DNA of 64,000 nt from a virus: IMG/VR virus record IMGVR_UViG_3300045988_154481; one strand, written 5' to 3'. Position 1 is the first letter of the stretch, and each line of letters begins with the position of its first letter. Below, one piece after another: positions 14,526-54,123 of the stretch. The position numbers and the translations under genes were made by a program. The notes beneath the pieces are model-generated. The model made no database searches. It saw only the letters and a program-made list of their open reading frames with translations, and was not told the DNA's origin.

Positions 14526-16038
14526 GCCAGGATTCAAAGTAGTCCTGATCATGGTCGCTGTAATTGCAGCATTTTTCGTAATCAAAGCCGTCGTCCCTTC
14601 CTCCTCGTCGTCGGGGCCATCCTCTACTTCGGGTCTCGGCGACATCTTCGGAGGAAAACCGACCATCAACATCGGAGTTAACACGTATGCGGGGTTTGCT
14701 CCCATCGTGTGGATTAACGGTGGTCTTCGTCCCAATGACGAGTCTATCCTGACTAAGGAGTATGGCATTCGTGCCAATATCATTATCCAGGATGATTTTG
14801 TTGCTGGACGCAACGCTTTCCTGAATGGGGATATCGACCTTATTTATTGTACTACGGATGTATTGGCCGTAGAGATGGGTGAAGGTTCCGCAATGAACAG
14901 TGCTAAGTATGTAATGATGCTTAACCGTTCTCAGGGGGCAGATGCAATGGTAGTTACCAAGAATATTCGTACCGTTGCAGATCTTAAGGGTAAAAAGATT
15001 GCAGTAGCTGAAGGAACTGCATCTCATACTCTTCTTCTGAATATTCTTGAAACGAACGGAATTAGCCAGCATGACGTAACACTTGTGAAAGTTGATAACG
15101 GTGGTGCTGCAGCTGACACATTTAAAGCTGGTCAGGTAGATGCTTGTGTTACATGGGCACCTGATGATCAAGCTTGTGTAGATGCTATTCCTGGTTCGAG
15201 AGTTCTCGTTTCAACCAAACATGCAAAAGACCTTGTAACAGATGGTCTTGTGGGAAAGGCAGAGTGGCTGGATAAGAATCATGACAATGTCAAGAAACTT
15301 ATTTCCGCAATTCTCTATGCTAATTCTACCCTGAATCAGAATCCGAATGCAGTGAAAGAAGCTTCGAAGATCTTCGCAAAAGCGTTTGGAACTGATCCTG
15401 AGTTTGCAGAATTGGGATGTGGGAGTATCTGGTTCGCTACTCTCGGTGATGAAGAAAATTTCTTTGGTATGACTTCCGATTATATGGGAATGAAGGCTGA
15501 AGAAATCTATTCAAAGATGGCTCGAACCTATGCTAGCCTTGGGCTTACTAAAAGTCCTCTGGGTTGGCGTAAAGTTTCCGACATGTCTTTCATCGAAGAG
15601 CTTTCCAGTGAGGGTACTGTGCAGGGCAATCAGGCTCCTCAACCCGCAGTTAAGTTCTCTGCTGTAACATCAGAAGTCAGGGAAAAACAGGCAATTTCTA
15701 ATAAGAAGTTGACTATTAATTTCCCTGTCAATGGTGACATCCTCGACAATGATGCTCGAGCTCTTATTGATCGAGAGTTTGTTCCGATTGCGAAGCAGTT
15801 CAACAATGCACGCGTTCGTATTGAAGGTAATACTGATAATACAGGTAATCGTGCATACAACGAGTCTCTTTCGTCTCGACGGGCTCAGGCTGTAGCTAAT
15901 TATTTAATTAATGACTACGGTTTTGATCCTAATCGGTTCATTATTGTTGGTAACGGTCCTAAGAATGCAATCCGTGACGGTGTGCAGGGTTCCAATATCA
16001 ACTATCGGACAACTGACTTTATGCTCGTAACTGAGTAA
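14512..16038 (+). CDS. ABC transporter substrate-binding protein (NMT1/NitT/TauT-like) fused to a C-terminal OmpA-like domain.
   Basis: Signal-anchor then a Ser-rich linker. C-terminal NTDNTGNRAYNESLSSRRAQAVANYL is the OmpA signature. All Trp codons are TGG. Confidence 0.65.
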   Translation: MAQLKPGFKVVLIMVAVIAAFFVIKAVVPSSSSSGPSSTSGLGDIFGGKPTINIGVNTYAGFAPIVWINGGLRPNDESILTKEYGIRANIIIQDDFVAGRNAFLNGDIDLIYCTTDVLAVEMGEGSAMNSAKYVMMLNRSQGADAMVVTKNIRTVADLKGKKIAVAEGTASHTLLLNILETNGISQHDVTLVKVDNGGAAADTFKAGQVDACVTWAPDDQACVDAIPGSRVLVSTKHAKDLVTDGLVGKAEWLDKNHDNVKKLISAILYANSTLNQNPNAVKEASKIFAKAFGTDPEFAELGCGSIWFATLGDEENFFGMTSDYMGMKAEEIYSKMARTYASLGLTKSPLGWRKVSDMSFIEELSSEGTVQGNQAPQPAVKFSAVTSEVREKQAISNKKLTINFPVNGDILDNDARALIDREFVPIAKQFNNARVRIEGNTDNTGNRAYNESLSSRRAQAVANYLINDYGFDPNRFIIVGNGPKNAIRDGVQGSNINYRTTDFMLVTE

Positions 16039-16039
16039 T

Positions 16040-16876
16040 ATGCAGTTGTTCAAAATGGGTGGGACGATCACCCATAAACAAGCATTGGCAACAGGTATCA
16101 TAGGAGCAATAGTTCTGCTGCTCCTATGGTATCTAGTTACCATGTCAGGAGAAATCATTCGTCCTCAGATTTTACCAAATCCTGTAAATGTGCTCAAGGC
16201 ATATCCAGATTTAATCTCCAACTCAGCTCTCTTTACTAATACTTGGTATACAGTAAAGCTGAACCTTATGGGATATTTCTATGCTTTAATTATTGCAATC
16301 CCTTTGGGCCTTATTATAGGATTGTTTCCCGTTACTAAAGCGTTATTTGGTAAGTACTTTGATGCCCTTCGTTATCTCCCTATACCTGCAGTGTCTGGCA
16401 TTTTTATCGCTGCTATAGGTATTGGATTCGATATGAAGGCTAGTTTTTTAGCTTTCGGCATTATTATTTACATTCTTCCTGTCGTTGTTCAACGAGTTTC
16501 TGAACTTCAGAATCCCGCTAATGATAAGGATTATGTGTATTTACAAACCATTTCAACGTTAGGTGCAACTAATTGGCAGAAATTTCGATATGTTTATTTT
16601 CCTTATGTAATGCAGCGAGTTTCCACTGATGTCATTAATCTAACTGCTATTTCTTACACTTATATAGTGATTGCAGAAACCCTTAACAAGGAAGGTGGCA
16701 TTGGTGCGCTGATAAACATAATGAGCAGACAGTCAAGAACTGCCGAAGTCTATGCACTTCTCTTCTTGATTATTGCTATCGGAATTCTCCAAGATGTCCT
16801 TCTAAAGAAATTGGATGTTGTGCTCTTTCCTTCAAAGTACAATAAGCCATCCATCAAATCCAAAATAATGAAATAA
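16040..16876 (+). CDS. ABC transporter permease.
   Basis: 278 aa with 6 predicted transmembrane segments, sitting between the binding-protein and ATPase genes. Confidence 0.6.
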   Translation: MQLFKMGGTITHKQALATGIIGAIVLLLLWYLVTMSGEIIRPQILPNPVNVLKAYPDLISNSALFTNTWYTVKLNLMGYFYALIIAIPLGLIIGLFPVTKALFGKYFDALRYLPIPAVSGIFIAAIGIGFDMKASFLAFGIIIYILPVVVQRVSELQNPANDKDYVYLQTISTLGATNWQKFRYVYFPYVMQRVSTDVINLTAISYTYIVIAETLNKEGGIGALINIMSRQSRTAEVYALLFLIIAIGILQDVLLKKLDVVLFPSKYNKPSIKSKIMK

Positions 16877-16878
16877 GT

Positions 16879-17715
16879 ATGGGGCTCTTTGATGGTTTAA
16901 CTGGATCCGTTCCAGTTCCCACATCTCGTTGTGAGGCTGTGGATGTAATTAACTTGAAAAATCTTAACCAGTCTTTTGATACTCCTAAAGGAAAGTTCAC
17001 TCTCTTTAAGGATTTTAGTCTGGATATAAAAGATTTCTCAGGAGAAGGGCAGTTTATCAGTATCTTAGGAAAGAGTGGTTGTGGTAAATCTCAGCTGCTC
17101 AAAATCATCTCTGGGCTTACACAGCCAGATTCAGGTGAAGTTCTTGTCTATGGAAAACCACAGACAGGAAAAATTCCTATGGTATTTCAGCAGTATTCTT
17201 CATTTCCATGGATGTCAGTTCTTGACAATGTAAAACTTCCGCTCATACTTCGAGGAGTTTCTGATAAAGAAGCTACAGAGAGGGCTATGAAAATGATCAA
17301 AATTGTAGGTCTGGAAGGTAATGAAACTAAATGGGGTCAATATCCTGTGTTATCAGGAGGACAGCTTCAACGAGTTTCAATGGCGCGAGCCCTGGTTGCA
17401 GATAACAAAATTCTTTTGTTAGATGAAGCCACTGGTGCATTAGATATTGTTATGAAACGAGAGATTCAGAACACCATTTTGGATATCTATTATAACGCCA
17501 AATTCGATCCTACAATCCTCAATGTTACACATAGCATTGAGGAGGCTGTGTATCTCTCAAATCGAATTTACATTTTAGCTCCTAATCCCTGTAAAGTTCA
17601 GGCTGTCATTGATGTTAACTTTGACGGTAGGAGAACTGATGCAATTCGTCAAACTGCAGCATTTGCAAATTATGTGAAACAAGTAGAACAAGTAATGTCA
17701 GAAACACATGAGTAA
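16879..17715 (+). CDS. ABC transporter ATP-binding protein.
   Basis: Walker A GKSGCGKS, signature LSGGQLQRVSMARAL, Walker B LLLDEATGALD. Confidence 0.85.
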   Translation: MGLFDGLTGSVPVPTSRCEAVDVINLKNLNQSFDTPKGKFTLFKDFSLDIKDFSGEGQFISILGKSGCGKSQLLKIISGLTQPDSGEVLVYGKPQTGKIPMVFQQYSSFPWMSVLDNVKLPLILRGVSDKEATERAMKMIKIVGLEGNETKWGQYPVLSGGQLQRVSMARALVADNKILLLDEATGALDIVMKREIQNTILDIYYNAKFDPTILNVTHSIEEAVYLSNRIYILAPNPCKVQAVIDVNFDGRRTDAIRQTAAFANYVKQVEQVMSETHE

Positions 17716-17904: not shown

Positions 17905-17975
17905 CGACTTTTATGGTGGAGTCGTCTAGCGATTTAGGACGCCAGTTCTCAGCTGGAAACAGTAGTTTGAATCTG
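17905..17975 (+). tRNA. tRNA-Glu-like, degenerate (4-bp anticodon stem, loop ttCTCag, 71 nt).
   Basis: Acceptor ggtggag/ctccact; Glu-type D-arm gtctagcgatttaggac; T-arm agtag-tttgaat-ctgct with one GU pair. The anticodon stem ccag/ctgg is closed by a G.A mismatch. Confidence 0.4.
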
Positions 17976-18190
17976 CTCTCCACTACACTATTTTAATTAT
18001 TTAATTTAGTTAGGGGTGCTCCTATATAATGCACGGTAGGATATTACCTAAGTATGCCCGAGCTAGTTGCTGAGAATCTCGTTAAACTTTAGAAATGTGG
18101 GTTTCAGAATTTATAATCCCCGCAGCTAAAAAATTCTTCAGATACTATCAACTGGGAGCCTAACGGTATCCTCTTTGATAGTATCTATTT

Positions 18191-18264
18191 GGTCTGTTCG
18201 TCTAGTGGCTTAGGACATTACCCTCTCAAGGTAAAGACAGTTTAAGGTTCGAATCCTCTACAGA
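18191..18264 (+). tRNA. tRNA-Glu(CUC)-like with a weak T-stem.
   Basis: Acceptor ggtctgt/acagact; D-arm gtctagtggcttaggac; anticodon stem ttacc/ggtaa with loop ctCTCaa. The T-stem taagg/cctct has only 3 base pairs. Confidence 0.45.
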
Positions 18265-18282
18265 CTACTAATATAGTAAACT

Positions 18283-23066: not shown

Positions 23067-23714
23067 ATGAATAAATACTCAAAACAAGAACTAGAAACGT
23101 ATATTTTAAAGGATAAACTTTCATATGCAGCAATTGGAGGCATTTATGGAGTAACTGGAGCGGCAATAAAGAAAGCCGCTTTAAGGTATGGAATTATATT
23201 ACCTAAAAAGAGAACCATAAATGCGAAAGAGAACTTTAGTCACAAAGGGAAATCTAAAGTAGACTCTTTTTCAGATTCAGAATTTATAGAAATTATTTCT
23301 AGTAACATTGGTTGAAAAAATATTGGATCTGCGTTGGGATATACTAACCGCCCATCAAGTGATGTTGTTTCAAATATAAAAAGTAGATGCTCGAAGTTAG
23401 GTATTGAGCCTATTATTGAACAACCTTCTCCAATACTATTTAAAACTAAGGGAGAATTATTATCTTCTAGAAAAAATTACCAAAGTTATAGAAGTTCTAT
23501 TAGAAAACATGCTGAGTTAACTTATTTTAGATCGACTAAGGTTAAAAAATGTGCAATATGTGGATATGATAAACATATAGAAATTGCACATATTAAATCA
23601 GTAGCAGAGTTTGATGATTCTGTAACAATTGCTGAAATCAATTCCATTGATAATCTCATAGCTTTATGCCCTAACCATCATTGAGAATACGATAATGGAT
23701 TGATTACGATATAA
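23067..23714 (+). CDS. HNH homing endonuclease with an N-terminal HTH (two in-frame TGA).
   Basis: ORFs 23067..23315 and 23334..23684 join through a TGA at 23316. The C-terminus reads LCPNHH-W-EYDNGLITI through a second TGA, then stops at TAA at 23712. Confidence 0.75.
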
Positions 23715-24622: not shown

Positions 24623-24694
24623 GCACCTTTGGTGTAATTGGTAACACGATGGTCTCCAAAACCATAGTTTAGAGTTCAAGTCTTTAAGGGTGTG
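24623..24694 (+). tRNA. tRNA-Trp(CCA)
   Basis: Acceptor gcacctt/agggtgt; D-stem gtgt/acac; anticodon stem atggt/accat with loop ctCCAaa; T-arm tagag-ttcaagt-cttta. Confidence 0.65.
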
Positions 24695-24749
24695 CATAGT
24701 TTTATTATTGTTTATTACAAAGTCTCTTCAGCAAATATTATCAATAGGG

Positions 24750-26643: not shown

Positions 26644-26724
26644 TGGCCCTGTAAGCAAAGTGGTAAAGCTGCTTATATATTCTAGGTTCATAAGTGTGTG
26701 GAGGTTCGAGTCCTTCCATGGCCA
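26644..26724 (+). tRNA. tRNA-like gene (81 nt), anticodon region irregular.
   Basis: Acceptor ggccctg/catggcc (one mismatch); D-stem agc/gct; T-arm ggagg-ttcgagt-ccttc. A candidate anticodon stem gctta/taagt would enclose a 16-nt loop. Confidence 0.3.
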
Positions 26725-26843
26725 CAAATTCTTTACAGTTTTACAATGAATAGGTAACATACAGCAAAGTAAATGGTTTAAGCAAAATTTCTCTTTTAAT
26801 TTAGCGAAAAGGTTCAAGTCCTTATTGTTACCTAGTTTTAGGA

Positions 26844-26930
26844 GCGGGTATGGCGCAATTGGTAGCGCAGATCACTTTTAATGATAAGGGAGCCGAAAGG
26901 CCGTTCAGGGTTCAAGTCCCTGTGCCCGCA
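26844..26930 (+). tRNA. tRNA with anticodon UUU (Lys-type loop ctTTTaa) but a 19-nt variable arm carrying a GAAA tetraloop. It is an atypical class-II-like tRNA.
   Basis: Acceptor gcgggta/tgcccgc; perfect D-stem gcgc/gcgc; anticodon stem gatca/tgata; variable arm agggagccgaaaggccgtt; T-arm caggg-ttcaagt-ccctg. The arm lengths sum to 87 nt. Confidence 0.5.
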
Positions 26931-26949
26931 CAAGTAAAATATATGTTAA

Positions 26950-27567
26950 ATGAGTAGAAAATACACTAAAGAAGAAATAATAAAATGCGTAGAAGGTTCT
27001 AAAACACCTTCTGAATGTTTATTGAAGCTAGGAGTTGCTCCTATTGGAGGAAATTATCCAATGTTGTATAATTTACTAAAATGATATAATATTTCAGTAC
27101 CTTTTAGAATTGGAGCAACTAGGGTTAAAAGTAATTTAAAAAAGAAGTTGATTAATGATAGAGGACATAAATGTGAAATGTGTTTAAATACAGAATGATT
27201 AGAAGATCCTATTCCTTTAGAGCTACATCACATTGATGGAAATCCAGATAACAATGTGGATTCTAATTTAATGCTTCTTTGTCCTAATTGTCATGCTAAA
27301 ACAGATAACTATAAAAGCAAAAATCGGCAAATCAATAAGAAAACCTATGCATGTTCAGAATGTGGTAAAGTTCTAAATTCCGCTTCCATGACTGGATTAT
27401 GTATAACTTGTTTACGTAAATCTTTAAAGAATCCTGTACGACCTTCTAAAGAAGAATTAGAGGAACTTCTAAAGACTAATTCTAAAACAGCACTAGGTAA
27501 GAAGTTTGGAGTTAGTGGCAGAACTATTCTTAAATGATATCGGCAGGATCACGGCATGGATGATTAA
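26950..27567 (+). CDS. HNH homing endonuclease (four in-frame TGA).
   Basis: Manual translation gives CEMCLNTE-W-LEDPIPLELHHIDGNPDNN...LMLLCPNCHAKTDN and the end ...ILK-W-YRQDHGMDD*. The ORF track shows only the 27256..27537 fragment. Confidence 0.8.
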
Positions 27568-27844: not shown

Positions 27845-28276
27845 ATGACTACTAAACAATTAGGAAATATAGGTGAGGCGAAAGCTCTTGCTAAATTTGT
27901 TGAACTTCAGATACCTGTATATATTCCATTTGGAGATAATGAAAAGTCAGATTTAATTGCTGACTTTAATGGAAAATTAAATAAAGTCCAGGTAAAAACC
28001 TCTGAAGAGTGAATTGATTCAGAGAAATTTGTTATTAGCCTGGTTAGTTCAACAATGCACAGGAACTCTGGGGAGAAGCACAAATATACTCATGAAGAAA
28101 TAGATTATTTTGCGTGCTATAACCTACAAAGTAATGTATTATTTTTATTACCTATCGAAGTTGTTGAGGGACAAACTATGATTACAATAAGACACCCTTA
28201 CGTTAACGTAGGTAAAAATCAATATAAGAGAATTAATTGAGAAGATTATACTTTTGAAAAAGTATGTAAAGCATAA
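27845..28276 (+). CDS. PD-(D/E)xK-type nuclease-like protein (one in-frame TGA).
   Basis: GNIGEAKALAKFVELQIPVYIPFGDNEKSDLIADFNGKLNKVQVKT reads as D...(D/E)xK. It continues past a TGA at 28238 to a TAA at 28274. Confidence 0.4.
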
Positions 28277-29059: not shown

Positions 29060-29794
29060 ATGAAACGTTTTAAAGAACTTTCAGATGATATAATCAGAAC
29101 TGTGTGAAATAACAGTAAAAGTTTGTTTGAAATTTGTAAAAAGTTAGAAATTCATGATAATATTTCTAATAGAAATAAATTAAAAGAATGGGCAGTTAAA
29201 AATAAAGTGGAGATTCCTGTTACTAACATACTTACAAAAGATAGTTATGAAAAGAATCCTAAACTATGTAAACAATGCGGAAATGTAATTTTATGAAGTA
29301 AAAGAGCCAATGACTTTTGTTCCCATTCATGTAGTGCTACATATCTAAATTTAAAAAGAGAGGCCAAGTCAAGTGGTAAGTATGTTCGTGGTGCTACTTC
29401 TATCTGTATAAATTGTGGAAACGTCATACCTGCAAGAAATCAATATTGTAATCACAAATGCCAAGCTGAATATGCCTACAAGGAATTTATCAAACGCTGA
29501 AAAGAAGGTAAAGAATTAGGAATGGCAGGTGAAGATGGATTATCTGCACATATTCGACGATATTTATTAGAGAAGGCTAATTATACCTGTGAAATTCCAG
29601 GATGTGGATGTAATTTCATTAATCCTTATACTAATTTATCCATTCTTCAGATACATCATATTGATGGAGATGCAACTAACAATAAAGAAGAAAATCTCCA
29701 GGTTTTGTGTCCAAATCATCATGCAATGACTGAACATTTTGGATCAAGGAATAAAAATAGTACTAGACGATATCGATACTCTAAAAATAAATAG
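29060..29794 (+). CDS. HNH homing endonuclease (three in-frame TGA).
   Basis: Manual translation 29060..29794 reads ...RTV-W-NNSK...VIL-W-SKRANDFCSHSC...IKR-W-KEGKELGMAGEDG...QIHHIDGD...LCPNHH. The ORF track shows only the last 90 aa. Confidence 0.8.
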
Positions 29795-30019: not shown

Positions 30020-30101
30020 GCCTCCTTGGCACAGCGGCGACTGCAACGGTTTTGTAATCCGTCTTCATTTGAACGCGTCGGTTCGAGTCCGACAGGAGGC
30101 T
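30020..30101 (+). tRNA. Class-II-length tRNA (82 nt). The anticodon is UGU by position, but the loop ttTGTAa also contains GUA. Thr/Tyr is ambiguous.
   Basis: Acceptor gcctcct/aggaggc; D-stem gca/tgc; anticodon stem acggt/tccgt with a T.T mismatch; 14-nt variable arm; T-arm gtcgg-ttcgagt-ccgac. Confidence 0.45.
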
Positions 30102-30128
30102 CTAAAATTTTATTAAAAACTTTATAAT

Positions 30129-32955: not shown

Positions 32956-33426
32956 ATGAAAATTGTAGATAATTTTATATTCTTCTGGGGAGGTTGGTTA
33001 AGTAACTTTCATCCTTGTAGAATAGTATTTGGCTCTAAAGTTTTTAAATCATCTGAACAGCTTTTTATGTATCTTAAAGCTTTGCATTTTGGTGATATAG
33101 AAACAGCAGAGAGGATTCTATTAGCAGAGACTCCAAAGGAAGCTAAAACCCTTGGTAGGGAGGTTAGAAACTTTGATGAAAAATCCTGGAATGAGGTTAA
33201 GATTCAGAAAATGTATCTTGCCTTGGAAGGTAAATTTAGCCAAAATAAAGATTTGATGGATAAACTTAAAGACCCAGCATTAAATGGGAAATTCTTTGTT
33301 GAAGCATCTCCCTTTGATAGAGTCTGGGGTATAGGCTATGATCAAGATCATGCACTTCAAAACCAATCAAATTGGGGAGAAAATCTACTTGGTAAGACTC
33401 TTACCTTTTACAGAGAATCTTTATAA
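32956..33426 (+). CDS. NADAR/YbiA family protein.
   Basis: MKIVDNFIFFWGGWLSNFHPC... The motif FFWGG..LSNF is diagnostic. The ORF-track start at 32878 lies inside tRNA-Tyr. Confidence 0.65.
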   Translation: MKIVDNFIFFWGGWLSNFHPCRIVFGSKVFKSSEQLFMYLKALHFGDIETAERILLAETPKEAKTLGREVRNFDEKSWNEVKIQKMYLALEGKFSQNKDLMDKLKDPALNGKFFVEASPFDRVWGIGYDQDHALQNQSNWGENLLGKTLTFYRESL

Positions 33427-33483
33427 ACAATTTGCGGATATTGACATCGCTCAATATCCGCTTTATTTTTAAAACTTAATAAG

Positions 33484-35175
33484 ATGTTTGAAGCAAAAAA
33501 GAAAACATTATTTGCTGTTGATAGCAGTAAATCGGCATCTAAATCAGCCTTTATTCAGGCAGGATTAAAAACTGCAGCAGAAACCACTACAGGTAACGGT
33601 GGTAAAGCCTATTCCAGTACAGGGGATCCCTTCGTTGACCAGTTTGGTAGTACATCTAAGTACAGAGAGATTCGCCCATTTGCAGAAATTGCAAAAGACT
33701 GTGAAATTCTCTGGGCAGAAAATAAAGAAGATACTGTTAAATTTATCTTTTTCTTGCGAATGATTTGTCGTAAGATTAATGATAAAGAGTATGGTACCAA
33801 AGAAGCACAAAAGGGTTCTGAGCTTCGTCATGAAGGTATTATGCGTCTCATCTGGCTACATACCAAAGATAAAGAAGTATTCTGGAAGAATGCTTGGCTG
33901 ATTCCCTTGGTGGGTTCTTGGAAAGATCTCTTCGTTATGCTTCGTTATGACTTAGTTTATAACGGCTGGGAACACCGAGTTCTGGATTGGCGTCGTTTTG
34001 CAGATCTGATTACTGCAGGTCTTGGCTCTGATTCTCAAACGAATCTCATTCGTAAGTATCTTCCTCAGATCAAGGCACGTTCCAAGTGTACTACAGTAAA
34101 GGCACAAGCAAATTGTATGATTGCAAAATGGCTGTGTTCAGAACTTTATGGTGCATCAGGAGCAAAGACAGATGCTGAAAAGTATCAGGTATATCGTTCT
34201 TATGCAAAGATGAAAGCTGCAGGAACAGCACATAGCTGGCAACAGCTTATTTCAAAGCAACGATATACAGAGATTGACTTTGATAAGATTCATGGTCGTG
34301 CCTTAAACCTTCTTGTACACTCCAAGTTCTTAGAGAATCATAATCTCAAAGAGAAGTATCAGGAATGGATAGGAGCTCCAGAGACAAAGGAGGTGAAGTA
34401 CACAGGTTTCGTACATGAGCTCTTTAAACCTATTTGTAACACTGTTCCTTATAATATAGAGCAGCATATCAAAGATACTATTAACAAGCAATTTATGACC
34501 CTTGTTAATAAGTGTAAGGAAGAGGGCAATACTACAGACCTTATCGTAGTACGTGATACTTCTGGTTCAATGGGTGCAGAAGCAACTGGAACTTCCATGT
34601 CTTGCTACAATGTAGGTAAGGCAATTGCTCTGTATTTCTCTTATTTCTTAAGAGGGAGATTCCAAAATGCATGGATTGAGTTTAACTCAAAAGCTATGAT
34701 GCATGAGTGGAAAGGAGAAACTCCTCTGGAGAAATGGTTTAATGACCATTCGGGGTACTATGGAAGTACAAACTTTGAGGGTGTTATTAACCTCTTTGCT
34801 CAGTTGAAGCTTGAAGGTGTTCCAGAAGAGGAATTTCCTAAAGGAATTCTTTGTATCAGTGATTGTGAGTTTGATGCTTCAAGTCTGAATAAGACTTCAG
34901 TTGAAAGAGTCCATGATACATTGACAGCTGCAGGATTTTCTAAAGAGTATGTTGACAATTTTGTCATTTGCCTTTGGAATTTGAGAAATGATTACTACGG
35001 ATATAATGCGCAGAATCGCACTCCATTCCAAACTTATGGTGATGTCAAGAATGTCTACTACATGTCTGGATATTCAGCACAGATTGTATCTTTCTTAAAT
35101 GGAAAGGTACAGACTACACGGGATCTGTTTGATGAGGCTATGAATCAAGAGATTCTGTCTCTCATTAAGATGTAA
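33484..35175 (+). CDS. Large protein with a C-terminal vWA domain (MIDAS DTSGSM). The long N-terminal alpha region could be TROVE/Ro60-like, but this is tentative.
   Basis: LIVVRDTSGSMGAEATGTS...NVGKAIALYF...GSTNFEGV...ILCISDCEFD matches a vWA fold. 563 aa, the size and order expected for Ro60. Confidence 0.55.
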   Translation: MFEAKKKTLFAVDSSKSASKSAFIQAGLKTAAETTTGNGGKAYSSTGDPFVDQFGSTSKYREIRPFAEIAKDCEILWAENKEDTVKFIFFLRMICRKINDKEYGTKEAQKGSELRHEGIMRLIWLHTKDKEVFWKNAWLIPLVGSWKDLFVMLRYDLVYNGWEHRVLDWRRFADLITAGLGSDSQTNLIRKYLPQIKARSKCTTVKAQANCMIAKWLCSELYGASGAKTDAEKYQVYRSYAKMKAAGTAHSWQQLISKQRYTEIDFDKIHGRALNLLVHSKFLENHNLKEKYQEWIGAPETKEVKYTGFVHELFKPICNTVPYNIEQHIKDTINKQFMTLVNKCKEEGNTTDLIVVRDTSGSMGAEATGTSMSCYNVGKAIALYFSYFLRGRFQNAWIEFNSKAMMHEWKGETPLEKWFNDHSGYYGSTNFEGVINLFAQLKLEGVPEEEFPKGILCISDCEFDASSLNKTSVERVHDTLTAAGFSKEYVDNFVICLWNLRNDYYGYNAQNRTPFQTYGDVKNVYYMSGYSAQIVSFLNGKVQTTRDLFDEAMNQEILSLIKM

Positions 35176-35182
35176 ACTCAAT

Positions 35183-35215
35183 AGGCTCTAGTAGAAGTGC
35201 TAGAGCCTTTTTATT
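35183..35215 (+). terminator. Rho-independent terminator aggctctag-N8-ctagagcct then TTTTATT.
   Basis: 9-bp perfect stem with a T-run. Confidence 0.7.
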
Positions 35216-35227
35216 AATAATCTAATT

Positions 35228-35366
35228 ATGGGTAAGTACCTTAAAGATTATCAAATTCCTGATTATTGTGAGGAGGATAAACCTAGAATGCCAAAACGGC
35301 CTAAGAAGTTTAAAGACCAAGAGGGAGGAAAACCTTTAGTAAAGAAAAAGTTCAAGCGATGAAGAG
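35228..35366 (+). CDS. Small basic protein (one TGA).
   Basis: Manual translation gives MGKYLKDYQIPDYCEEDKPRMPKRPKKFKDQEGGKPLVKKKFKR-W-RDDS*. Confidence 0.25.
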
Positions 35367-35645
35367 ATGATTCTTAAGAATATTTAGAAGATTTAATGAA
35401 CCATCAACTGATAGTTCAAAAGAATTTCCTAAAAAAGTAATTGACTTAGAACAATTTGACGATGTATTTATAATTACTAATAAAAAGGTATATAAGGCCT
35501 GGGTTATGAAAAGAACCAGTAGACTTCTACAGATTTTTATTTGGGAGTCTAAAAAGGAGGTAATTATAAATACAATTGGACAAGCTAATTCTAGTGTTAT
35601 TCCTTTTGGCAAGGATAGCTATTTAATTATAAATAAAAAAGATAT

Positions 35646-36227
35646 ATGCGATTACTTGTAGTAGTTGATATGCAAGAAGACTTCATCAGAGGTGCATTAA
35701 CGGTTCCTGGTGCTGAAGAAATAATTTCTCCTATAGAGAGATTAGTTAAAGAGTATATAACAGCAGATGATGCTGTTCTTTTTACTCGGGATACTCATTA
35801 TGAGCATAGTGATACTAGGGGATTTAGTTATGCTATGACTCGTGAAGGTAGAAATCTTCCAATTCTTCATTGCGTTTGTGGAACTGAAGGTCATAAGATT
35901 ATTAAGGAATTTAAACCTTACCTTCGTTCCTGCTATGTAATGGATAAACTAAACAGGTTTGGATTTATTCAGGACGAGTTCAATGATGCCAAGGTAGATG
36001 AAGGAGAATATTTATTTGACCTTACTGGTTACATTACAGAAATTACTCTGGTTGGTGTAGTAACTAACCTTTGTGTTATTTCATGTGCTGTAAGTTTTCA
36101 GCAAATATTCCCTAACGCAGATATCATCATAGATGCTTCCTGCTGTCGTTCTAATAACAATGAACTTCATAACAAAGCTTTAGATGTTATGGAGGGTTTA
36201 CAAATGACTATAATTAATCGTTATTAA
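35646..36227 (+). CDS. pncA: Isochorismatase-family hydrolase (nicotinamidase PncA-like).
   Basis: MRLLVVVDMQEDF...LFTRDTHY...CG is the cysteine-hydrolase fold. Confidence 0.65.
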   Translation: MRLLVVVDMQEDFIRGALTVPGAEEIISPIERLVKEYITADDAVLFTRDTHYEHSDTRGFSYAMTREGRNLPILHCVCGTEGHKIIKEFKPYLRSCYVMDKLNRFGFIQDEFNDAKVDEGEYLFDLTGYITEITLVGVVTNLCVISCAVSFQQIFPNADIIIDASCCRSNNNELHNKALDVMEGLQMTIINRY

Positions 36228-36313
36228 TTTTTTGATTTTTATAAACTTAATGTTTAGAACAGTTTGTGAAATTAAATTTTATTGATATCTTTGTAGTATA
36301 AAACTAATAAAGT

Positions 36314-36802
36314 ATGGATAAAATTTGTTCAAAATGTGGGGAAACTAAAGACATTTCACTCTTTGCTAAGGATCGGCACTCTTCTGATGGATATACTTAT
36401 TGATGTAAAGATTGTAGAAATACAGCAAATAAGAAATATCGGAAAGAAAATCCTGATAAAGTTCAGGAACATAATGAAAAGTGAAAAGATAAAAGAAAAG
36501 AATATTATAGTCTTCCTAAAAATCAAGAAAAGCTTAGAAGACATCATCTCAAGAAAATGTATAATATTACTTTGGAAGACTATGATGCTTTGTTTCAACT
36601 TCAAGGTGGTGTTTGTGCTATATGTGGAAAACCTGAAACAAGCTCAAAGGCTAGTAACTTAGCAGTAGATCATGATCACACAAATGGTAGTATTAGAGGC
36701 CTATTATGTAATAAATGTAATAGAGGCTTAGGATATTTTGAAGATGATGCAACTATTTTGTCTAAAGCTATAGAATATTTAAAAAATAAAGATAATGTTT
36801 AG
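36314..36802 (+). CDS. Recombination endonuclease VII (two in-frame TGA).
   Basis: Manual translation gives CSKCGETKD...GYTY-W-CKDCRN...HNEK-W-KDKR...CAICGKPE...DHDHTNGSIRGLLCNKCNRGLGYF. The ORF track shows only 36557..36802. Confidence 0.8.
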
Positions 36803-38279
36803 ACCGTGTTCAGTCCTCCTTTCAGATTTTTATAAGCAGGATCACCAGCGTCAATATGACCCTAGCATCACTAAGGTAGTTTCTTACTATGTACCTCGTA
36901 AAACTAGGATTCCTGAATTTGATAAGGTAGTAGTTTTTGGTATTCAAGCATTTATTGAGGAGTATCTGATTGAGTACATGAATGAAACTTTCTTTAACCG
37001 TCCCTTAGAAGAAGTTATTGCAGAATATGAATTTGTGATTTCTTCTACTATGGGAGCAGACCGTGTTAACTCGGATAAAATTAAAAACCTTCATGAATTA
37101 GGATATCTTCCTATCGAGATCTGGGCACTTCCTGAGGGATATAAAGTAGGAATGAATGTCCCCTGTATCGAGATTTCTAATACTAATCCAGAATTTGCAT
37201 GGTGTACTAATTTCATTGAAACCTTGATGCTCTCTGAGCTTTGGTATCCAATGTGTGTTGCAACTGCTGTAACTAAATATCGTAGTATCGTAAATGATTT
37301 TTATTCTAAAACTTCTGATATTTCTGGTCGTTCTGCTATTTCTGAGTTCGGATTTAGAAGTTTAGTTGGACTTCATGGTGCTATTAAAGCTTCGTGTGGA
37401 TTTTTGCTCTCTTTTAATAAGACTGCGACTATTCCTGGCATTATGTATGCTTCAAAGTATTATCATACCCCAATGTCTGTAGTAGGTGGAGGTATGGCTT
37501 CTACTGAGCACTCCGTAATGTGTAGTTCTGCTGCCATTGATGGGGATGAAAAAGTTATGATTCGACGCCTCCTTACTGAGGTCTACCCGAATGGATCATT
37601 CTCTATGGTAAGTGATTCCTATGATTACTGGAATGTTGTCGATGAGATTCTTCCATCTCTTAAGGAAGAAATTCTCAGTAGAAACGGCACTTTGTATGTT
37701 CGTGGTGACTCTGGGGATCCTGTAGAAATTGTAACTGAGACAGTTTTCTCTCTTTGGGAGACTTTTGGAGGTACTGTCAACTCTAAAGGGTATAAAGTCT
37801 TAGATCCTCATGTTCGAGCTTTATATGGTGATGGCATCACTCAGTTACGTGCAAAACAGATTTATCAGATTTTGTATGATAAAGGATTCTCTGCAGAGAA
37901 TGTTGCACTTGGTGCAGGAGGATTTTCCATGCTTTCTTACATGGATGAGTTTGGGAATGTGGATATGTTCTCTCGCGATACATTTAATGTAGCAATTAAG
38001 TGCAGCTATGTAGAACAAACCATTGATGGAAAAACTAAATCTATCATGGTCTACAAAGATCCTAAAACGGATTCAGGAATGAAGAAATCCCACAGAGGAT
38101 GTTGTGCTGTTTTCTACAACCATGTAACTGGTGAGTTTGATTGTGATGAAGGTATGACACTGAAAGAAGCTCATAATGAGCCTTTCAATTTACTTCGTCC
38201 TATCTTTTCAGATGGAAAAATGAGAGAGCAAACTACTCTCACAGAAATTCGTAGAACTCTTTGGAACGGGAAATTCTAA
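36795..38279 (+). CDS. nadV: Nicotinamide phosphoribosyltransferase (Nampt/NadV family, or the homologous Namat).
   Basis: Block-by-block similarity to NAMPT: LLSDFYKQDHQRQY, LPIEIWALPEGYKV, NTNPEFAWCTNFIETLMLSELWYPMCVAT, DFGFRS, VSDSYDYWN, RGDSGDP, NSKGYKVLDPHVRALYGDGI, IKCSYV. Confidence 0.9.
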   Translation: MFRPCSVLLSDFYKQDHQRQYDPSITKVVSYYVPRKTRIPEFDKVVVFGIQAFIEEYLIEYMNETFFNRPLEEVIAEYEFVISSTMGADRVNSDKIKNLHELGYLPIEIWALPEGYKVGMNVPCIEISNTNPEFAWCTNFIETLMLSELWYPMCVATAVTKYRSIVNDFYSKTSDISGRSAISEFGFRSLVGLHGAIKASCGFLLSFNKTATIPGIMYASKYYHTPMSVVGGGMASTEHSVMCSSAAIDGDEKVMIRRLLTEVYPNGSFSMVSDSYDYWNVVDEILPSLKEEILSRNGTLYVRGDSGDPVEIVTETVFSLWETFGGTVNSKGYKVLDPHVRALYGDGITQLRAKQIYQILYDKGFSAENVALGAGGFSMLSYMDEFGNVDMFSRDTFNVAIKCSYVEQTIDGKTKSIMVYKDPKTDSGMKKSHRGCCAVFYNHVTGEFDCDEGMTLKEAHNEPFNLLRPIFSDGKMREQTTLTEIRRTLWNGKF

Positions 38280-39049
38280 TGAAAGAAGTATATGAAGGAA
38301 TAGTTTCCTTTCTTAAGAATTATCAAGAACGTACCCATGTGAAAGGGTATGTTCTTGGTATTTCTGGAGGAAAGGATTCTACTGTAGTGGCCAAATTATT
38401 GGTAGATTCTATAGGTAAGGAAAATGTATTAGGTGTGCTAATGCCTAATGGTAAGCAAGCTGATATTGAGGATAGTTATACAGTATGTGACTTTCTTGGT
38501 ATTAACTATACTGTTGTTAATATAGAGAATGCATTTGATGAACTTATTCATCAAATTGATGTTTCGAAAATAACTACAGTGGAAGGGAATGAAGAAAACA
38601 TTCCAGTAACGAAAAAGGCTCTTACTAATGTTCCTCCTCGTATTCGTATGACTATTCTATATACTATAGCTCAGTCTGTAGGATATCGAGTAGCGGGGAC
38701 TAGTAATGCTTCAGAATTATTTATTGGTTGGGGAACTAAATGGGGAGATTTGGCATCTGATATTAATCCTATTTCTCAATTAACATGTTCTGAAGTTATT
38801 TCTTTAGGAGACTATATGGGGCTCCCATATGATCTTATACATAAGACTCCTGCAGATGGATTAACAGGAAAGTCTGATGAAGAAAATTTTGGTTTTACAT
38901 ACAAAGAGCTTGATACTCTTATTGTAAAGCAGCGAAATCTTACTTGCACAGGTAGAATACAATGTGCTTTTACTGAACAAGAATTAAAAATCTTAAAATT
39001 ACATGAAGCTGCGTATCACAAAGATCATGTAATTAAAATACATTATTAA
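38261..39049 (+). CDS. nadE: NAD+ synthetase (NadE family).
   Basis: PP-loop GISGGKDSTVVAKLL and the NadE-like C-terminal half. Confidence 0.8.
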   Translation: MEREILMKEVYEGIVSFLKNYQERTHVKGYVLGISGGKDSTVVAKLLVDSIGKENVLGVLMPNGKQADIEDSYTVCDFLGINYTVVNIENAFDELIHQIDVSKITTVEGNEENIPVTKKALTNVPPRIRMTILYTIAQSVGYRVAGTSNASELFIGWGTKWGDLASDINPISQLTCSEVISLGDYMGLPYDLIHKTPADGLTGKSDEENFGFTYKELDTLIVKQRNLTCTGRIQCAFTEQELKILKLHEAAYHKDHVIKIHY

Positions 39050-43725: not shown

Positions 43726-43810
43726 GCGGAGGTGACCAGAATGGATAATGGACCAGTCTTCTAAACTGGCGGCTGAATAGCCATTGTGGGTTCGAGTCCC
43801 ACCCTCCGTA
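43726..43810 (+). tRNA. Class-II-length tRNA (85 nt) with anticodon UCU (loop ctTCTaa) and a long variable arm. The amino-acid identity is ambiguous.
   Basis: Acceptor gcggagg/cctccgt; anticodon stem ccagt/actgg; variable arm cggct-gaat-agccatt; T-arm gtggg-ttcgagt-cccac. Confidence 0.5.
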
Positions 43811-43826
43811 CTAATAACATTATAAT

Positions 43827-47298: not shown

Positions 47299-47309
47299 TA
47301 GAAAGGATT

Positions 47310-47399
47310 GCGCCTGACCCGAGGCGGGGGGGAGGTCTTCAAAACCTCTATGCTGTTGGTCCATCTTCAGCCCTGTGGGATCGTTACCTACCAGGCGTG
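47310..47399 (+). tRNA. Opal suppressor tRNA (anticodon UCA), 90 nt, with a 26-nt variable arm, a non-canonical T-loop (atcgtta) and G73.
   Basis: Acceptor gcgcctg (47310-16) pairs with caggcgt (47392-98). Anticodon stem gaggt/acctc (47332-36 and 47344-48) with loop cTTCAaa; the anticodon TCA is at 47339-41. T-arm gtggg-atcgtta-cctac. Variable-arm helix gctg...cagc. Confidence 0.6.
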
Positions 47400-47415
47400 C
47401 AAATAAGAAGTAAAT

Positions 47416-48000
47416 ATGACTATTAAGGAACAATGTATACATTTACGGGAAGAAGGAAAAACTTATAACGAAATTTGTACTATTCTACACTGTTCTAAAA
47501 GTACAGTTGCATATCATTTGAATACGACTACTAAGATAGCAGCTACAAAATGACAAAGCGAAAACAAATGTAAGGATTGAAAGTACAAATTTATGCATAG
47601 TTGTTCTAACTTTCTAAATCGAAGAGATAGATCTAAACATATCAGAACAATGTGTTCAGATTGAAATAAAAAGTTTAGAACTCACGTATCAGAGTTCAAT
47701 AATAGATATAAAAACAAAGGAAATTTGGCTAATAAATGTTATTACAAGGATGTGTTAACATATCTTAATGGAACTAATGTTAAATGTTATTTAACAGGTA
47801 CACCTATTGATTTGACAAAAGATGATTATTGTTTTGATCATATAGTTCCTGTATCAAAAGGAGGAACTAATGAATTATCAAATCTAGGAGTAACTATTCC
47901 CTCAGCTAATTATTCTAAACATGATTTAACTATAGAGGAATATTTGTCTTTATGTAAACAGGTTTTAGAACACCATGGGTATACTGTAAGTAAAACTTAA
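47416..48000 (+). CDS. HNH homing endonuclease with an N-terminal HTH (three in-frame TGA).
   Basis: Manual translation gives MTIKEQCIHLREEGKTYNEICTILHCSKSTVAYHL...ATK-W-QSENKCKD-W-KYKF...CSD-W-NKKF..., joining ORF 47725..48000 (DHIVPVSKGGTNELSNL). Confidence 0.75.
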
Positions 48001-53332: not shown

Positions 53333-53746
53333 ATGATACAGAAAGCTAGGGAATTTACTGTTCCTATTCTTAATGTTAAAGTGTCAATCCTAATTGGAAG
53401 TCCACTATCCGTAGAAAGTTACCTTCAGGATGTTCATAACAAAGTATTCGGACATAGTGCACCAAATGTAGTTGCAGAAACCTTTTATTCTACTGAATCA
53501 GATGTTGATGAGTTTTTGTATATTGCATTATACGATGATACAGATATAAAAGATTCTGCATATAACGTTATACATGAATGTCTTCATGCTGCTCATAAAA
53601 TCTGCACTTTCAGAGGAGTTGAGTTAGATGAAGAGTTTCTATGTTATTTGCAGGGATTCTTAATTAACAAAGTATTTGAATGTTTGAATGCTGAACTGAT
53701 GGTAGTTACAAACCATCAATTGACTGCGGAGGATACTCTGCAATAA
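53333..53746 (+). CDS. Hypothetical protein with an HExxH motif (putative metallopeptidase-like).
   Basis: VIHECLHAAH. Confidence 0.35.
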   Translation: MIQKAREFTVPILNVKVSILIGSPLSVESYLQDVHNKVFGHSAPNVVAETFYSTESDVDEFLYIALYDDTDIKDSAYNVIHECLHAAHKICTFRGVELDEEFLCYLQGFLINKVFECLNAELMVVTNHQLTAEDTLQ

Positions 53747-54123
53747 TAACTCAAAATGGTGAAGTTATAAAAAAACTTTACAGAGGTTATAGAAACACTA
53801 CTAACAACCGTATGGAACTTCTAGGGGTCTTAGAATGTCTTAGATATTTTACAAACCCTGAACAAATAACCATATATTCGGATTCTCAATATGTAGTATC
53901 GAGTATTAACAACAAGCATCTTACCAAGTGGGTTGAAGACAATGATCAATCCAAAAAGAATCTTGATTTGTGATATCCGATTTATGAATTATTGAAGTTT
54001 CATACGGTTACTTTTGTGTGAGTAAAAGGCCACAATAATAACAAATTTAATGAGTTAGCGGATTTATTTGCAACTCATGCAAGTGATTGTTTAGATCTAC
54101 CAGAAGATAATGGTTCATTTTAA
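53680..54123 (+). CDS. rnhA: Ribonuclease HI (three in-frame TGA). It overlaps the 3' end of the previous ORF in another frame.
   Basis: Manual frame-1 translation gives MFEC-W-TDGSYKPSIDCGGYSAII...TTNNRMELLGVLE...YSDSQYVV...NLDL-W-YPIYELLKFHTVTFV-W-VKGHNNNKFNELADLFA. The TGA at 53971 aligns with the Trp of E. coli VDLW, and the TGA at 54019 with the Trp of WVKGH. Confidence 0.8.

Follow-up and report, generated by a model that had tools for sequence, protein, structure and literature searches.

How does a phage that uses UGA as a sense codon read that codon, when the only transfer RNA gene in view that could do so hardly looks like a tRNA? This question is raised by a 90-nt element in a 64,000-nt stretch of DNA (hereafter the window) from the ~170-kb genome of a human-gut phage (IMG/VR record IMGVR_UViG_3300045988_154481). 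A first-pass annotation, made from the sequence alone, had described the element as a dedicated opal-suppressor tRNA(UCA) with a 7-bp acceptor stem carrying G1.U72 and G73, 5-bp anticodon and T stems, a noncanonical T loop and a 26-nt variable arm with its own helix, and had read it as a class II or Sec-like tRNA repurposed to decode UGA, without SECIS, selA or selB context. Below, we first ask whether the element is a tRNA, then which amino acid it is likely to carry, and finally where it came from. The features of the locus are collected in Table 1.

Table 1. Coordinates (window numbering) of the tRNA(UCA) gene, its parts, the adjacent gene, and other window genes used in the analysis.
Position	Strand	Feature	Supporting observation
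47310..47399	+	tRNA(UCA) gene, "Type A" opal suppressor; no encoded CCA, next bases CAA	ARAGORN; minimum free-energy cloverleaf; covariation; conservation, with intron-split alleles in relatives
47310..47316	+	Acceptor stem, 5' strand GCGCCUG, pairing with 47392-47398 (CAGGCGU); G1.U72 and C2-G71	Invariant in all variants
47318..47328	+	Miniature D arm: 4-bp stem CCCG/CGGG, 3-nt loop AGG; only A8 (47317) links it to the acceptor	Two compensatory pairs in relatives L055/L108 (CUCA/UGAG)
47331..47349	+	Anticodon arm: 6-bp stem GGAGGU/ACCUCU, loop CUUCAAA; anticodon UCA at 47339-47341	G-C to A-U compensatory change in relatives L014/L015/L103; probable group I intron site of L036 and L193 between 47339 and 47340
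47352..47371	+	Variable-arm hairpin GCUG-UU-GG-UCCA-UC-UU-CAGC; apical UCCA at 47360-47363	Invariant in all Type A variants; UCCA in the apical loop of the extra arm in all 36 distinct related 7/5+G73 tRNA(UCA) sequences
47375..47391	+	T arm: stem GUGGG/CCUAC, noncanonical loop AUCGUUA (GGCGGUA in the L055 lineage)	Sequence of the window and of the variants
47399..47399	+	Discriminator G73	Major bacterial TrpRS determinant (PMC9976931)
47416..48000	+	HTH + HNH-like endonuclease gene; three in-frame TGA codons (47551, 47578, 47662), no TGG; forms a cassette with the tRNA	Pfam HNH_4/HNH_5/HTH_23 hits just below cut-off; homology to relatives breaks at 47308 and resumes at 47991 or 48125
24623..24695	+	Canonical phage tRNA-Trp(CCA) with G1.U72 and G73; comparison for identity elements	tRNA prediction
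53680..54123	+	RNase H gene, 3 in-frame TGA codons; a client of the suppressor	PDB alignment places TGA at the invariant W of NxDLW, at W/F/K of the VKGH motif, and at Y/F before TDGS
58029..59249	+	Helicase gene, 6 in-frame TGA codons; a client of the suppressor	TGA columns 14, 64 and 157 are W in 47 of 47 homologues; TGA and TGG interchange in relatives' DNA

The sequence and its described features were confirmed, and the observation in the first-pass annotation thus holds, with two refinements. The anticodon stem can be extended to 6 bp by a closing G.U pair, and the D arm is strikingly small. The element has the acceptor, T and anticodon arms expected of a cloverleaf, with U33 and a purine at position 37, and 25 to 26 nt, including a hairpin, lie between the anticodon and T stems. 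The conserved D loop (G18 G19, 7–11 nt) and T loop (T54 Psi55 C56 ... A58) are lacking, the D loop being AGG or AAG in the variants, and only a possible G19–C56 pair is retained. ARAGORN reported a tRNA-SeC(tca) at 47310-47400, and the minimum free-energy structure from RNAfold is the cloverleaf described here.

Taken alone, the single-sequence evidence is marginal. The fold z-score is only −0.73, which is uninformative, and searches with the Rfam tRNA (RF00005) and tRNA-Sec (RF01852) models returned no hit at the locus at the gathering threshold or at E ≤ 10, nor did the tRNA model at E ≤ 1 in L055. ARAGORN misses two of the three natural variants. We regard the absence of an Rfam match as a property of this tRNA rather than as evidence against it. 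A scan for promoters and terminators gave nothing above shuffled expectation. The T loop GGGAUCGUUACC also occurs in unrelated phage tRNA-Asp genes, and the motif alone is therefore not diagnostic.

Comparative data provide the stronger case. The element is identical in 10 other IMG/VR contigs and 13 metagenome contigs, from different samples, whereas the flanks vary. Searches of IMG/VR, the metagenome set and GTDB genomes with exact and gapped patterns yielded only three sequence variants, plus one intron-bearing contig binned as Clostridium; three of the four genome hits were chance matches in coding DNA. Across the three variants, 28 of 28 base pairs are kept, three pairs change on both sides, and none is broken, although covariation consequently rests on three pairs. 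The element is an island of 61% GC in flanks of 29–34% GC and is intergenic, lying between a stop codon at 47298 and an ATG at 47416. Being part of a protein gene had been named beforehand as a refuting condition, and this was not observed.

In two relatives, L036 and L193, the same gene is split by a probable group I intron of ~600 nt located exactly between U34 and C35; the window copy is uninterrupted. The Rfam group I model gave no hit with the ORF-containing introns of L036 and of another relative, L030. Only an ORF-less, 341-nt version gave a full-length alignment to Intron_gpI, which was weak and below the gathering threshold (18.3 bits, E = 0.024), and we therefore refer to the intron as probable group I. 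The intron ORF matches PF11645 and PDB 2OST.

These observations bear on the idea that the element is a decaying pseudogene, left behind by endonuclease or intron traffic, with UGA being decoded by something else. In favor of this idea, the D and T loops are degenerate, covariance models do not detect the element, and the locus is clearly a hotspot for mobile elements. However, the sequence is conserved exactly in 24 contigs including the window, every stem change is compensatory, and intron-bearing copies keep their exons intact. Moreover, the element is mutually exclusive with a well-formed allele at the same site in two phage lineages (see below), and it is the only UCA tRNA in the window of a phage that needs one. 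We consider the pseudogene reading very unlikely.

Which amino acid does the tRNA carry? Stop codon usage on plus-strand ORFs of the window is TAA 49, TAG 8 and TGA 4, and none of the four TGA cases is credible, in accordance with genetic code 4. TGA occupies Trp positions in replication genes and homing-endonuclease genes (Table 1). The helicase homologues are themselves translated from TGA; as a check on circularity, we therefore inspected the codons in their DNA and used standard-code RNase H sequences from the PDB. Relatives encode all Trp by TGA and swap TGA with TGG at invariant W columns. In GenBank phage records we found no similar DNA, and the nearest helicase, in unannotated fecal contigs, is 36–39% identical.

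With respect to the bacterial Trp identity set, the tRNA has G73 and a Trp-type acceptor (1:72 being A-U or G.U in this set), with five of seven acceptor positions identical to those of the phage's own tRNA-Trp(CCA), whose acceptor strand is GCACCUU. In the anticodon, C35 and A36 are present, whereas position 34 is U, as expected for an opal reader, and a second UCCA sits in the loop of the extra arm.

The ARAGORN label suggests a selenocysteine tRNA inserting Sec at special UGA codons, and G73 and the long variable arm would fit. However, ARAGORN gives this label to any long-arm UCA tRNA, including the Type B allele described below, the acceptor/T geometry is 7/5 rather than the 13-bp branch (8/5) of bacterial tRNA-Sec, and the D arm has 4 bp and a 3-nt loop instead of 6 bp and a 4-nt loop. 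No SelA, SelB or SelD domain was found among the window ORFs scanned, and TGA is abundant, aligns with Trp and interchanges with TGG. The selenocysteine reading is thus contradicted by the available data and was rejected as highly improbable.

Charging by SerRS, as for tRNA-Ser or allo-tRNAs, would lead to UGA being read as serine. G73 and a long variable arm are the recognition features of SerRS (PMC7609411), so that mis-serylation cannot be excluded by sequence alone, and nine Sec/allo-like UCA tRNAs with 8/4-type geometry exist in other viral contigs. On the other hand, besides the codon evidence, the tRNA has C2-G71 rather than the Ser-type G2-C71, and C2-G71 is reported as an antideterminant for E. 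coli SerRS (PMC9976931). The geometry is neither 8/4 nor 9/3, the D arm is unlike that of tRNA-Ser, and the allele family is built on a tRNA-Trp body. We consider the serine reading very unlikely as well.

The alleles found at this locus bear on the origin of the element. Related phages carry either the Type A tRNA or a second allele, Type B, which is a canonical tRNA-Trp(CCA) body with an extra UCA anticodon hairpin inserted between positions 26 and 27, such that the old CCA hairpin becomes the variable arm. Type B is supported by 98.1% pairing with 12 compensatory pairs, scores 59.5 bits with the Rfam tRNA model, and reverts to a tRNA-Trp(CCA) call upon deletion of 22 nt. Two relatives, L054 and L055, carry Type B and Type A, respectively, after the same upstream sequence, and a further relative, L052, has a plain 72-nt Trp-like tRNA(UCA) just upstream of the same neighboring gene. 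Both alleles can be split at U34|C35 by a probable group I intron encoding a PD-(D/E)XK or HNH endonuclease. Type A shares with this family, defined here and of which Type B is the common allele, an NGGU-CUUCAAA-ACCN anticodon arm followed by an extra hairpin with UCCA in its loop, 7/5 geometry, G73 and the genomic slot. It lacks the canonical tRNA-Trp D arm and T loop and the 7-nt anticodon-like loop of the extra hairpin, having a UCCA tetraloop on an irregular stem instead.

The interpretation in the first-pass annotation is therefore only partly supported. A dedicated UGA decoder of unusual architecture and the absence of selenocysteine context are supported, and no second UCA tRNA exists in the window, but an origin as a repurposed class II or Sec-like tRNA is not supported. 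The long variable arm is best read as a Trp-lineage extra arm rather than a Ser/Sec-type arm. The tiny D loop, the adjacent TGA-containing HNH gene, and the mobile, allelic nature of the locus had been missed.

Our preferred explanation, held with fairly high confidence, is that the gene encodes a functional, tryptophan-accepting opal-suppressor tRNA that reads UGA, and probably UGG by U34 wobble, thereby allowing the phage to translate its genes in code 4 inside a host presumed to use the standard code. The analysis itself establishes the purifying and compensatory selection on the cloverleaf, the absence of credible TGA stops in the window, the use of TGA at Trp positions, the lack of another UCA tRNA in the window, and the two alleles with their shared intron site. 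The remainder is inferred from sequence alone, namely that the transcript is processed and receives CCA, that host TrpRS, or an unseen phage TrpRS, charges it through G73, the Trp-like acceptor stem and C35/A36, and that it competes with RF2 at UGA. Since only 64 kb of the genome is visible, another UGA decoder, a phage TrpRS or RF1 could lie outside the window. It is likewise an inference that Type A is a strongly derived family member, in which the irregular extra arm keeps only the UCCA motif, and that the tRNA+HNH unit, a swappable cassette, spreads by endonuclease-driven allele replacement.

A possible refinement, which we put forward only tentatively, is that the extra arm mimics a Trp anticodon, with the exposed UCCA supplying the C34-C35-A36 determinant normally read by TrpRS and compensating for U34. 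One tRNA would then carry one anticodon for the ribosome and one for the synthetase. All 36 distinct long-arm 7/5+G73 tRNA(UCA) sequences have UCCA in the apical loop of the extra arm, as CUCCAAA, GUCCAAA or GUCCACA. The invariant loops in our alignment were partly forced by the initial search pattern, and we therefore repeated the search with a pattern that leaves the extra arm free, which accounts for about half of these sequences. The stem under the loop covaries (three of five pairs are compensatory), and Type A keeps its whole arm invariant while its D stem and T loop change. A separate tRNA-Trp(CCA) is present in both Type A and Type B genomes, which makes it unlikely that the CCA hairpin of Type B is needed to decode UGG, and the anticodon bases are major TrpRS determinants (PMC9976931). 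However, the tip of a variable arm lies far from where the anticodon sits on a synthetase, no structural precedent is known to us, and the Type A loop has only 4 nt. In addition, tRNA-Trp(UCA) is charged by bacterial TrpRS without such an arm (cited in Borges et al., bioRxiv 10.1101/2021.08.26.457843), and L052 has a plain version. Conservation of UCCA could also reflect another partner, such as a modification enzyme, a nuclease decoy, a T-box or a phage protein.

In the boldest version of this idea, which is equally tentative, these phages have separated the two jobs of the anticodon, with the UCA anticodon arm decoding UGA and the UCCA loop serving as the identity or another recognition element for TrpRS or another Trp-tRNA-specific factor. 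The family would have arisen when an intron-carrying UCA hairpin was inserted into a tRNA-Trp(CCA) gene, and would spread as a homing cassette, Type A being its most reduced form and invisible to covariance-model tRNA finders.

These findings matter for three reasons. Borges et al. detected TGA suppressor tRNAs in only 35% of code-4 phages and guessed that noncanonical tRNAs escape detection; the present locus, with one allele that lacks a match to the Rfam models and others hidden by introns of 341–707 nt, provides concrete cases and may help explain the gap. A model built from these sequences could be used to re-screen recoded phages. Second, a tRNA-Trp with a long extra arm bearing a conserved UCCA loop is unusual and suggests a testable new way of keeping synthetase identity while changing the decoding anticodon, which is of interest for genetic-code engineering. 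Third, the tRNA is embedded in selfish-element traffic, with an adjacent HNH gene whose Trp codons are all TGA and with intron endonuclease ORFs, which links the spread of a genetic-code change to homing.

Compared with known systems, the closest are the TGA suppressor tRNAs of code-4 gut phages (Borges et al.; AP1/HF2 tRNA-Trp(UCA), PMC12636597), which share the phage-borne UCA tRNA, the reading of TGA as Trp, G73 (in the AP1 tRNA), a low-GC phage in which no credible gene ends in TGA, and homing-endonuclease genes enriched in TGA. Those examples were found by standard tRNA predictors, and we found no report describing a long extra arm, a 3-nt D loop, a non-TPsiC T loop or intron-split alleles; no TrpRS or RF1 lies next to the present tRNA. 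Natural tRNA-Trp(UCA) of code-4 organisms (Mycoplasma, mitochondria) is likewise a U34 derivative of tRNA-Trp that reads UGA and UGG, but is an ordinary class I cloverleaf or a mitochondrial form, and none is known to have an extra CCA-loop arm. Class II tRNAs, tRNA-Sec and allo-tRNAs (Mukai et al. 2017, PMC5389517) share the long variable arm with its own helix, G73, the UCA anticodon in some members and the ARAGORN SeC label, whereas the present tRNA has 7/5 geometry instead of 8/5, 8/4 or 9/3, a tiny D arm, C2-G71, codon evidence pointing to Trp, and a UCCA-bearing arm that is best read as derived from a Trp anticodon arm. tRNA-Pyl and other compact-core tRNAs (PMC7609411) also have one nucleotide between the acceptor and D stems, a very small D loop, a T loop lacking T54-Psi55 and a 6-bp anticodon stem, and read a stop codon; tRNA-Pyl, however, has a 3-nt variable loop and reads UAG with PylRS, whereas here G19 and C56 may still pair and the variable region is 25 nt. 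Finally, bacterial tRNA genes can be split by group I introns in the anticodon loop, as in cyanobacterial tRNA-Leu(UAA) and in Synechocystis tRNA-fMet, whose intron encodes the PD-(D/E)XK endonuclease I-Ssp6803I (PDB 2OST). In relatives of the phage (L036, L193, L030 and others), the intron similarly sits after position 34, ends in G, has R/S-like core motifs and encodes a PF11645/2OST-like endonuclease. What differs is that the interrupted gene is a phage suppressor tRNA, and that the intron ORF itself starts M-x-x-W with W encoded by TGA, so its translation needs the tRNA that it interrupts.

The suppressor tRNA gene reads GCGCCTGACCCGAGGCGGGGGGGAGGTCTTCAAAACCTCTATGCTGTTGGTCCATCTTCAGCCCTGTGGGATCGTTACCTACCAGGCGTG and was reported by ARAGORN as tRNA-SeC(tca) at 47310–47400, one of 26 tRNA genes on the + strand. 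The minimum-energy structure predicted by RNAfold is a cloverleaf with a 7-bp acceptor stem containing G1.U72, a single linker nucleotide (A8), a 4-bp D stem with a 3-nt loop, a 6-bp anticodon stem with the loop CUUCAAA, a 20-nt hairpin in the variable region, a 5-bp T stem with the loop AUCGUUA, and discriminator G73. The structural description given in the first-pass annotation is thus accurate. Taken alone, however, the call is weak, since the fold z-score is only -0.73 and the Rfam tRNA and tRNA-Sec models gave no hit, either at gathering threshold or at E<=10 on a 211-nt slice. The element lies between a stop codon at 47298 and an ATG at 47416, and forms a 61% GC island in 29–34% GC flanks, being one of only five such 90-nt stretches in the window. 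The coordinates of this gene and of the other features considered here are listed in the table below.

Coordinates of the suppressor tRNA gene, its genomic neighbors, and other features in the window and in related contigs
Location	Strand	Feature
window 47310-47399	+	Suppressor tRNA(UCA) gene, Type A
window 47416-48000	+	Adjacent gene, HTH + HNH-like protein
window 48005-48508		Gene with a homologue in L052
window 24623-24695		tRNA-Trp(CCA)
window 53680-54123		RNase H
window 58029-59249		Helicase
window 23067-23714, 26950-27567, 27845-28276, 29060-29794, 36314-36802, 47416-48000	+	Six free-standing homing-endonuclease-like genes
window 26844-26931, 43726-43811, 30020-30102	+	Class I tRNAs Lys(UUU), Arg(UCU) and Thr(UGU) with an extra hairpin
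window 26645-26725	+	tRNA-Pyl(cta) by ARAGORN
window 11457-11530	+	tRNA-like gene with a 6-nt anticodon loop
window 8901-8974, 17915-17986, 18191-18268	+	Three tRNA genes with CUC-type (Glu) anticodon loops
window 7881-7951	+	Pistol self-cleaving ribozyme (RF02679)
window 32956-39049 and 13740-17715	+	Auxiliary metabolic genes (two sets)
L030 5320-5925; L036 4736-5335; L058 395-1101		Endonuclease ORFs inside introns of the suppressor tRNA gene
L193	-	Endonuclease ORF inside an intron of the suppressor tRNA gene

Comparative data show that this is a real tRNA under selection. An exact-pattern scan found the identical 91 nt in 10 IMG/VR contigs of 89–172 kb, whereas the flanking bases differ, and a looser pattern applied to the metagenome collection added 13 contigs, including human-gut assemblies of 165–176 kb. 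Only two other variants were found. In the contigs L014, L015, and L103 (handles beginning with L denote contigs compared with the window), a G-C pair in the anticodon stem is changed to A-U. In L055 and L108, two D-stem pairs are changed (CCCG/CGGG to CUCA/UGAG), together with three T-loop bases, one D-loop base, and one base (U to A) just before the T stem. In the alignment of the three sequences, which are the only Type A variants that exist, all 28 pairs stay paired, three pairs change on both sides, and none breaks. ARAGORN fails on both variants, so the window copy sits at the edge of what that program detects.

In L036, the same gene is split, with positions 1–30 and 31–91 lying about 600 nt apart, so that the insertion falls exactly between U34 and C35. 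L193 shows the same for the L055-type variant, with a 602-nt insert. In these inserts, the last 5' exon base is U, the intron ends in G, and the 3' core is conserved. They encode a PF11645 PD-(D/E)XK endonuclease, whose nearest solved relative is 2OST, and which is replaced by an HNH endonuclease in L049 and L071. An ORF-less 341-nt version in L062 aligns end to end with Rfam Intron_gpI, including the R and S core motifs, although the score is only 18.3 bits (E=0.024), which is below gathering. Based on this sub-threshold match, the position, the end nucleotides, and the encoded endonucleases, we call these probable group I introns. Their position matches that of the classical bacterial tRNA introns, and it also confirms independently which loop is the anticodon loop.

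Among + strand ORFs of at least 90 aa, stop usage is TAA 49, TAG 8, and TGA 4. None of the four TGA cases is a credible stop: one is an out-of-frame ORF, two are read-through genes, and one is followed two codons later by TAA. At least 15 well-supported genes contain in-frame TGA. When the RNase H was compared with solved RNase HI structures from standard-code organisms, one TGA aligned with the invariant Trp of NxDLW, one with W, F, or K before VKGH, and one with Y or F before TDGS. The helicase has six TGA codons; in 47 homologues, three of these columns are W in 47 of 47, and the others are mostly W or Y. Because these homologues are themselves recoded, we examined their DNA, which showed that relatives encode all or most Trp as TGA (7 TGA and 0 TGG in L053–L055), and that TGA and TGG replace each other at invariant Trp columns between the window and L056 or L053. 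TGA is therefore Trp, and the phage uses code 4. For the gene that ARAGORN calls tRNA-Pyl(cta), which has an oversized anticodon loop and scores 39.4 bits against the Rfam tRNA model, a role as a possible amber suppressor has to be weighed against the observation that TAG ends 8 of the 61 + strand ORFs of at least 90 aa and 14 of 77 code-4 ORFs, so TAG is probably still a stop.

No other UCA tRNA was found in the window, which covers 64 kb of a roughly 170-kb genome. The two tRNAs found only by Rfam are Gly(UCC) and a CUC-type tRNA. Of the three separate tRNA genes with CUC-type (Glu) anticodon loops, the first is seen only by Rfam and the second only by ARAGORN. A further tRNA-like gene (Rfam 47.7 bits) has an anticodon loop of only 6 nt, for which ARAGORN reports a 2-nt "anticodon" aa, whereas the tRNA-Trp(CCA) of the window is normal. 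None of the window ORFs scanned has SelA, SelB, SelD, TrpRS, or release-factor domains. The window also carries auxiliary metabolic genes, one set being for NAD salvage (NADAR, isochorismatase-type, nicotinamide phosphoribosyltransferase, and NAD synthase) and the other comprising an ion-transport protein, an OmpA/NMT1-like binding protein, an ABC permease, and an ABC ATPase. A pistol ribozyme scores 72.5 bits against a gathering score of 34.5.

Alignment of 12.5 kb around the tRNA with relatives showed that homology stops at 47308 and resumes at 47991 or 48125 in L030, L032, L033, L045, and L047–L049. The replaced block is exactly the tRNA plus the next gene, which encodes an HTH + HNH-like protein (Pfam hits just under cut-off) and has three in-frame TGA codons and no TGG. 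In those relatives, the slot holds a different gene, here called Type B, as opposed to the Type A of the window: GGGGATGTAGTGTAATGGTAGCACA-GCGGTCTT[intron]CAAAACCGT-AAAC-GGGGTCTCCAAAACTCC-AGGT-GTGGGTTCGAATCCTAC-CATCTCTG. In a second lineage of phages, whose helicase is about 48% identical, L054 carries an intronless Type B and L055 carries Type A, both after the same upstream sequence. The two forms are therefore alternative alleles of one function.

A pattern scan found Type B in 39 IMG/VR loci, with introns of 0 or 341–707 nt. Sixteen distinct spliced sequences support a five-helix structure, in which 98.1% of cells are paired and 12 pairs show changes on both sides, three of them among the five pairs of the second hairpin. 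Rfam scores intronless Type B at 59.5 bits, with the UCA hairpin as the anticodon arm and the second hairpin as an insertion in the variable region. Removal of the first hairpin and its linker (22 nt) leaves a sequence that ARAGORN calls tRNA-Trp(CCA). So Type B is a tRNA-Trp(CCA) body with an added UCA anticodon arm, often intron-bearing, between positions 26 and 27. A more distant relative, L052, carries an ordinary 72-nt Trp-like tRNA(UCA) with G1.U72 and G73, about 350 nt upstream of its homologue of the window's 48005–48508 gene.

Type A shares several features with Type B and with the phage's tRNA-Trp(CCA), namely G73 and a 1:72 wobble or A-U pair, an acceptor stem matching the phage's own tRNA-Trp(CCA) at 5 of 7 positions, the GGUCUUCAAAACC anticodon core, and, in many members, the GUGGG/CCUAC T stem. 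The first-pass reading of a dedicated UGA-decoding tRNA with an unusual architecture is supported, but the origin that it proposed, a class II or Sec-like tRNA repurposed as a UGA decoder, is not supported. To avoid the bias of our first pattern, we searched with a pattern that leaves the extra arm free. Every one of the 36 distinct sequences with 7/5 geometry and G73 has UCCA in the apical loop of the extra arm, as CUCCAAA, GUCCAAA, GUCCACA, and similar, and the arm of Type A, GCUG-UU-GG-UCCA-UC-UU-CAGC, keeps the same motif. Nine other hits, in the IMG/VR contigs L149, L153, L154, L161, L164, L171–L173, and L188, are UCA tRNAs of 8/4-type, Sec-like or allo-like geometry, with a longer acceptor, a 4-bp T stem, and a long arm without UCCA. 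In L176, a 344-kb IMG/VR contig, a class II-shaped tRNA with a Ser/Leu-like D arm and a long arm has the anticodon loop CUCCAAA (CCA). Long extra arms seem to be a habit of this phage group, since three class I tRNAs of the window, Lys(UUU), Arg(UCU), and Thr(UGU), are 83–88 nt long because they carry an extra hairpin in the variable region, and relatives have both short (73–75 nt) and long (86–88 nt) Arg(UCU) versions.

What makes Type A different is its reduced core, with a single linker nucleotide, a 3-nt D loop, and a T loop without T54 or Psi55, which also differs between variants. In these respects it resembles tRNA-Pyl-like compact tRNAs (PMC7609411). A G19–C56 contact may survive, as inferred from the constancy of the last D-loop G and T-loop C56. 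The unusual T loop GGGGAUCGUUACCCC (A54/U58 swapped) also occurs in tRNA-Asp(GUC) genes of unrelated tRNA-rich viral contigs (L011, L012, L016, L018, L025, and L027–L029), some of which also carry tmRNA genes.

Taken together, the data establish a selected cloverleaf with a UCA anticodon, located in a phage that uses TGA as Trp and has no other UCA tRNA in view, and interchangeable with a clearly Trp-derived allele. How the tRNA works is inferred from sequence alone. In this view, it would be transcribed with its neighbors, and would be trimmed and given CCA, because the gene continues CAA. No convincing promoter or terminator was found. TrpRS would charge it with Trp through G73, the acceptor stem, and C35/A36 (determinants per PMC9976931), and it would compete with RF2 at UGA. 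C2–G71, which is reported as an anti-determinant in Escherichia coli (PMC9976931), may guard against SerRS. The clients would include the replication genes and every homing-endonuclease gene in the tRNA region. Of the six such free-standing genes in or near this region, five are HNH-type by sequence motifs and one is a PF11645 PD-(D/E)XK by Pfam; five use TGA for all Trp codons, and the sixth (29060–29794) has 3 TGA and 1 TGG. The intron ORFs in relatives begin M-x-x-W with W encoded by TGA, and translation of the endonuclease should therefore depend on the spliced product of the gene that it interrupts.

The invariant UCCA over a covarying stem argues for a sequence-specific partner of the extra arm. 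A separate tRNA-Trp(CCA) is present in both Type A and Type B genomes, so the loop is not needed to read UGG. The most interesting reading, that the arm acts as a Trp anticodon mimic for TrpRS, remains possible but is in our view more doubtful than likely.

Phage opal suppressors that read TGA as Trp have been described previously (Borges et al.; PMC12636597), and in function the present tRNA belongs with them. In the literature library searched, to which this absence is limited, we found no description of a tRNA-Trp suppressor with a long UCCA-loop arm, of the reduced Type A core, or of suppressor tRNA genes split by group I introns, and no GenBank phage record in the collection contains similar DNA. 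Borges et al. explicitly suspected the existence of undetected noncanonical suppressor tRNAs, since only 35% of code-4 phages had a detected one. Type A, which gets no Rfam tRNA or tRNA-Sec hit, and the intron-split alleles, which are not found by Rfam or ARAGORN, are both concrete candidates for that gap.
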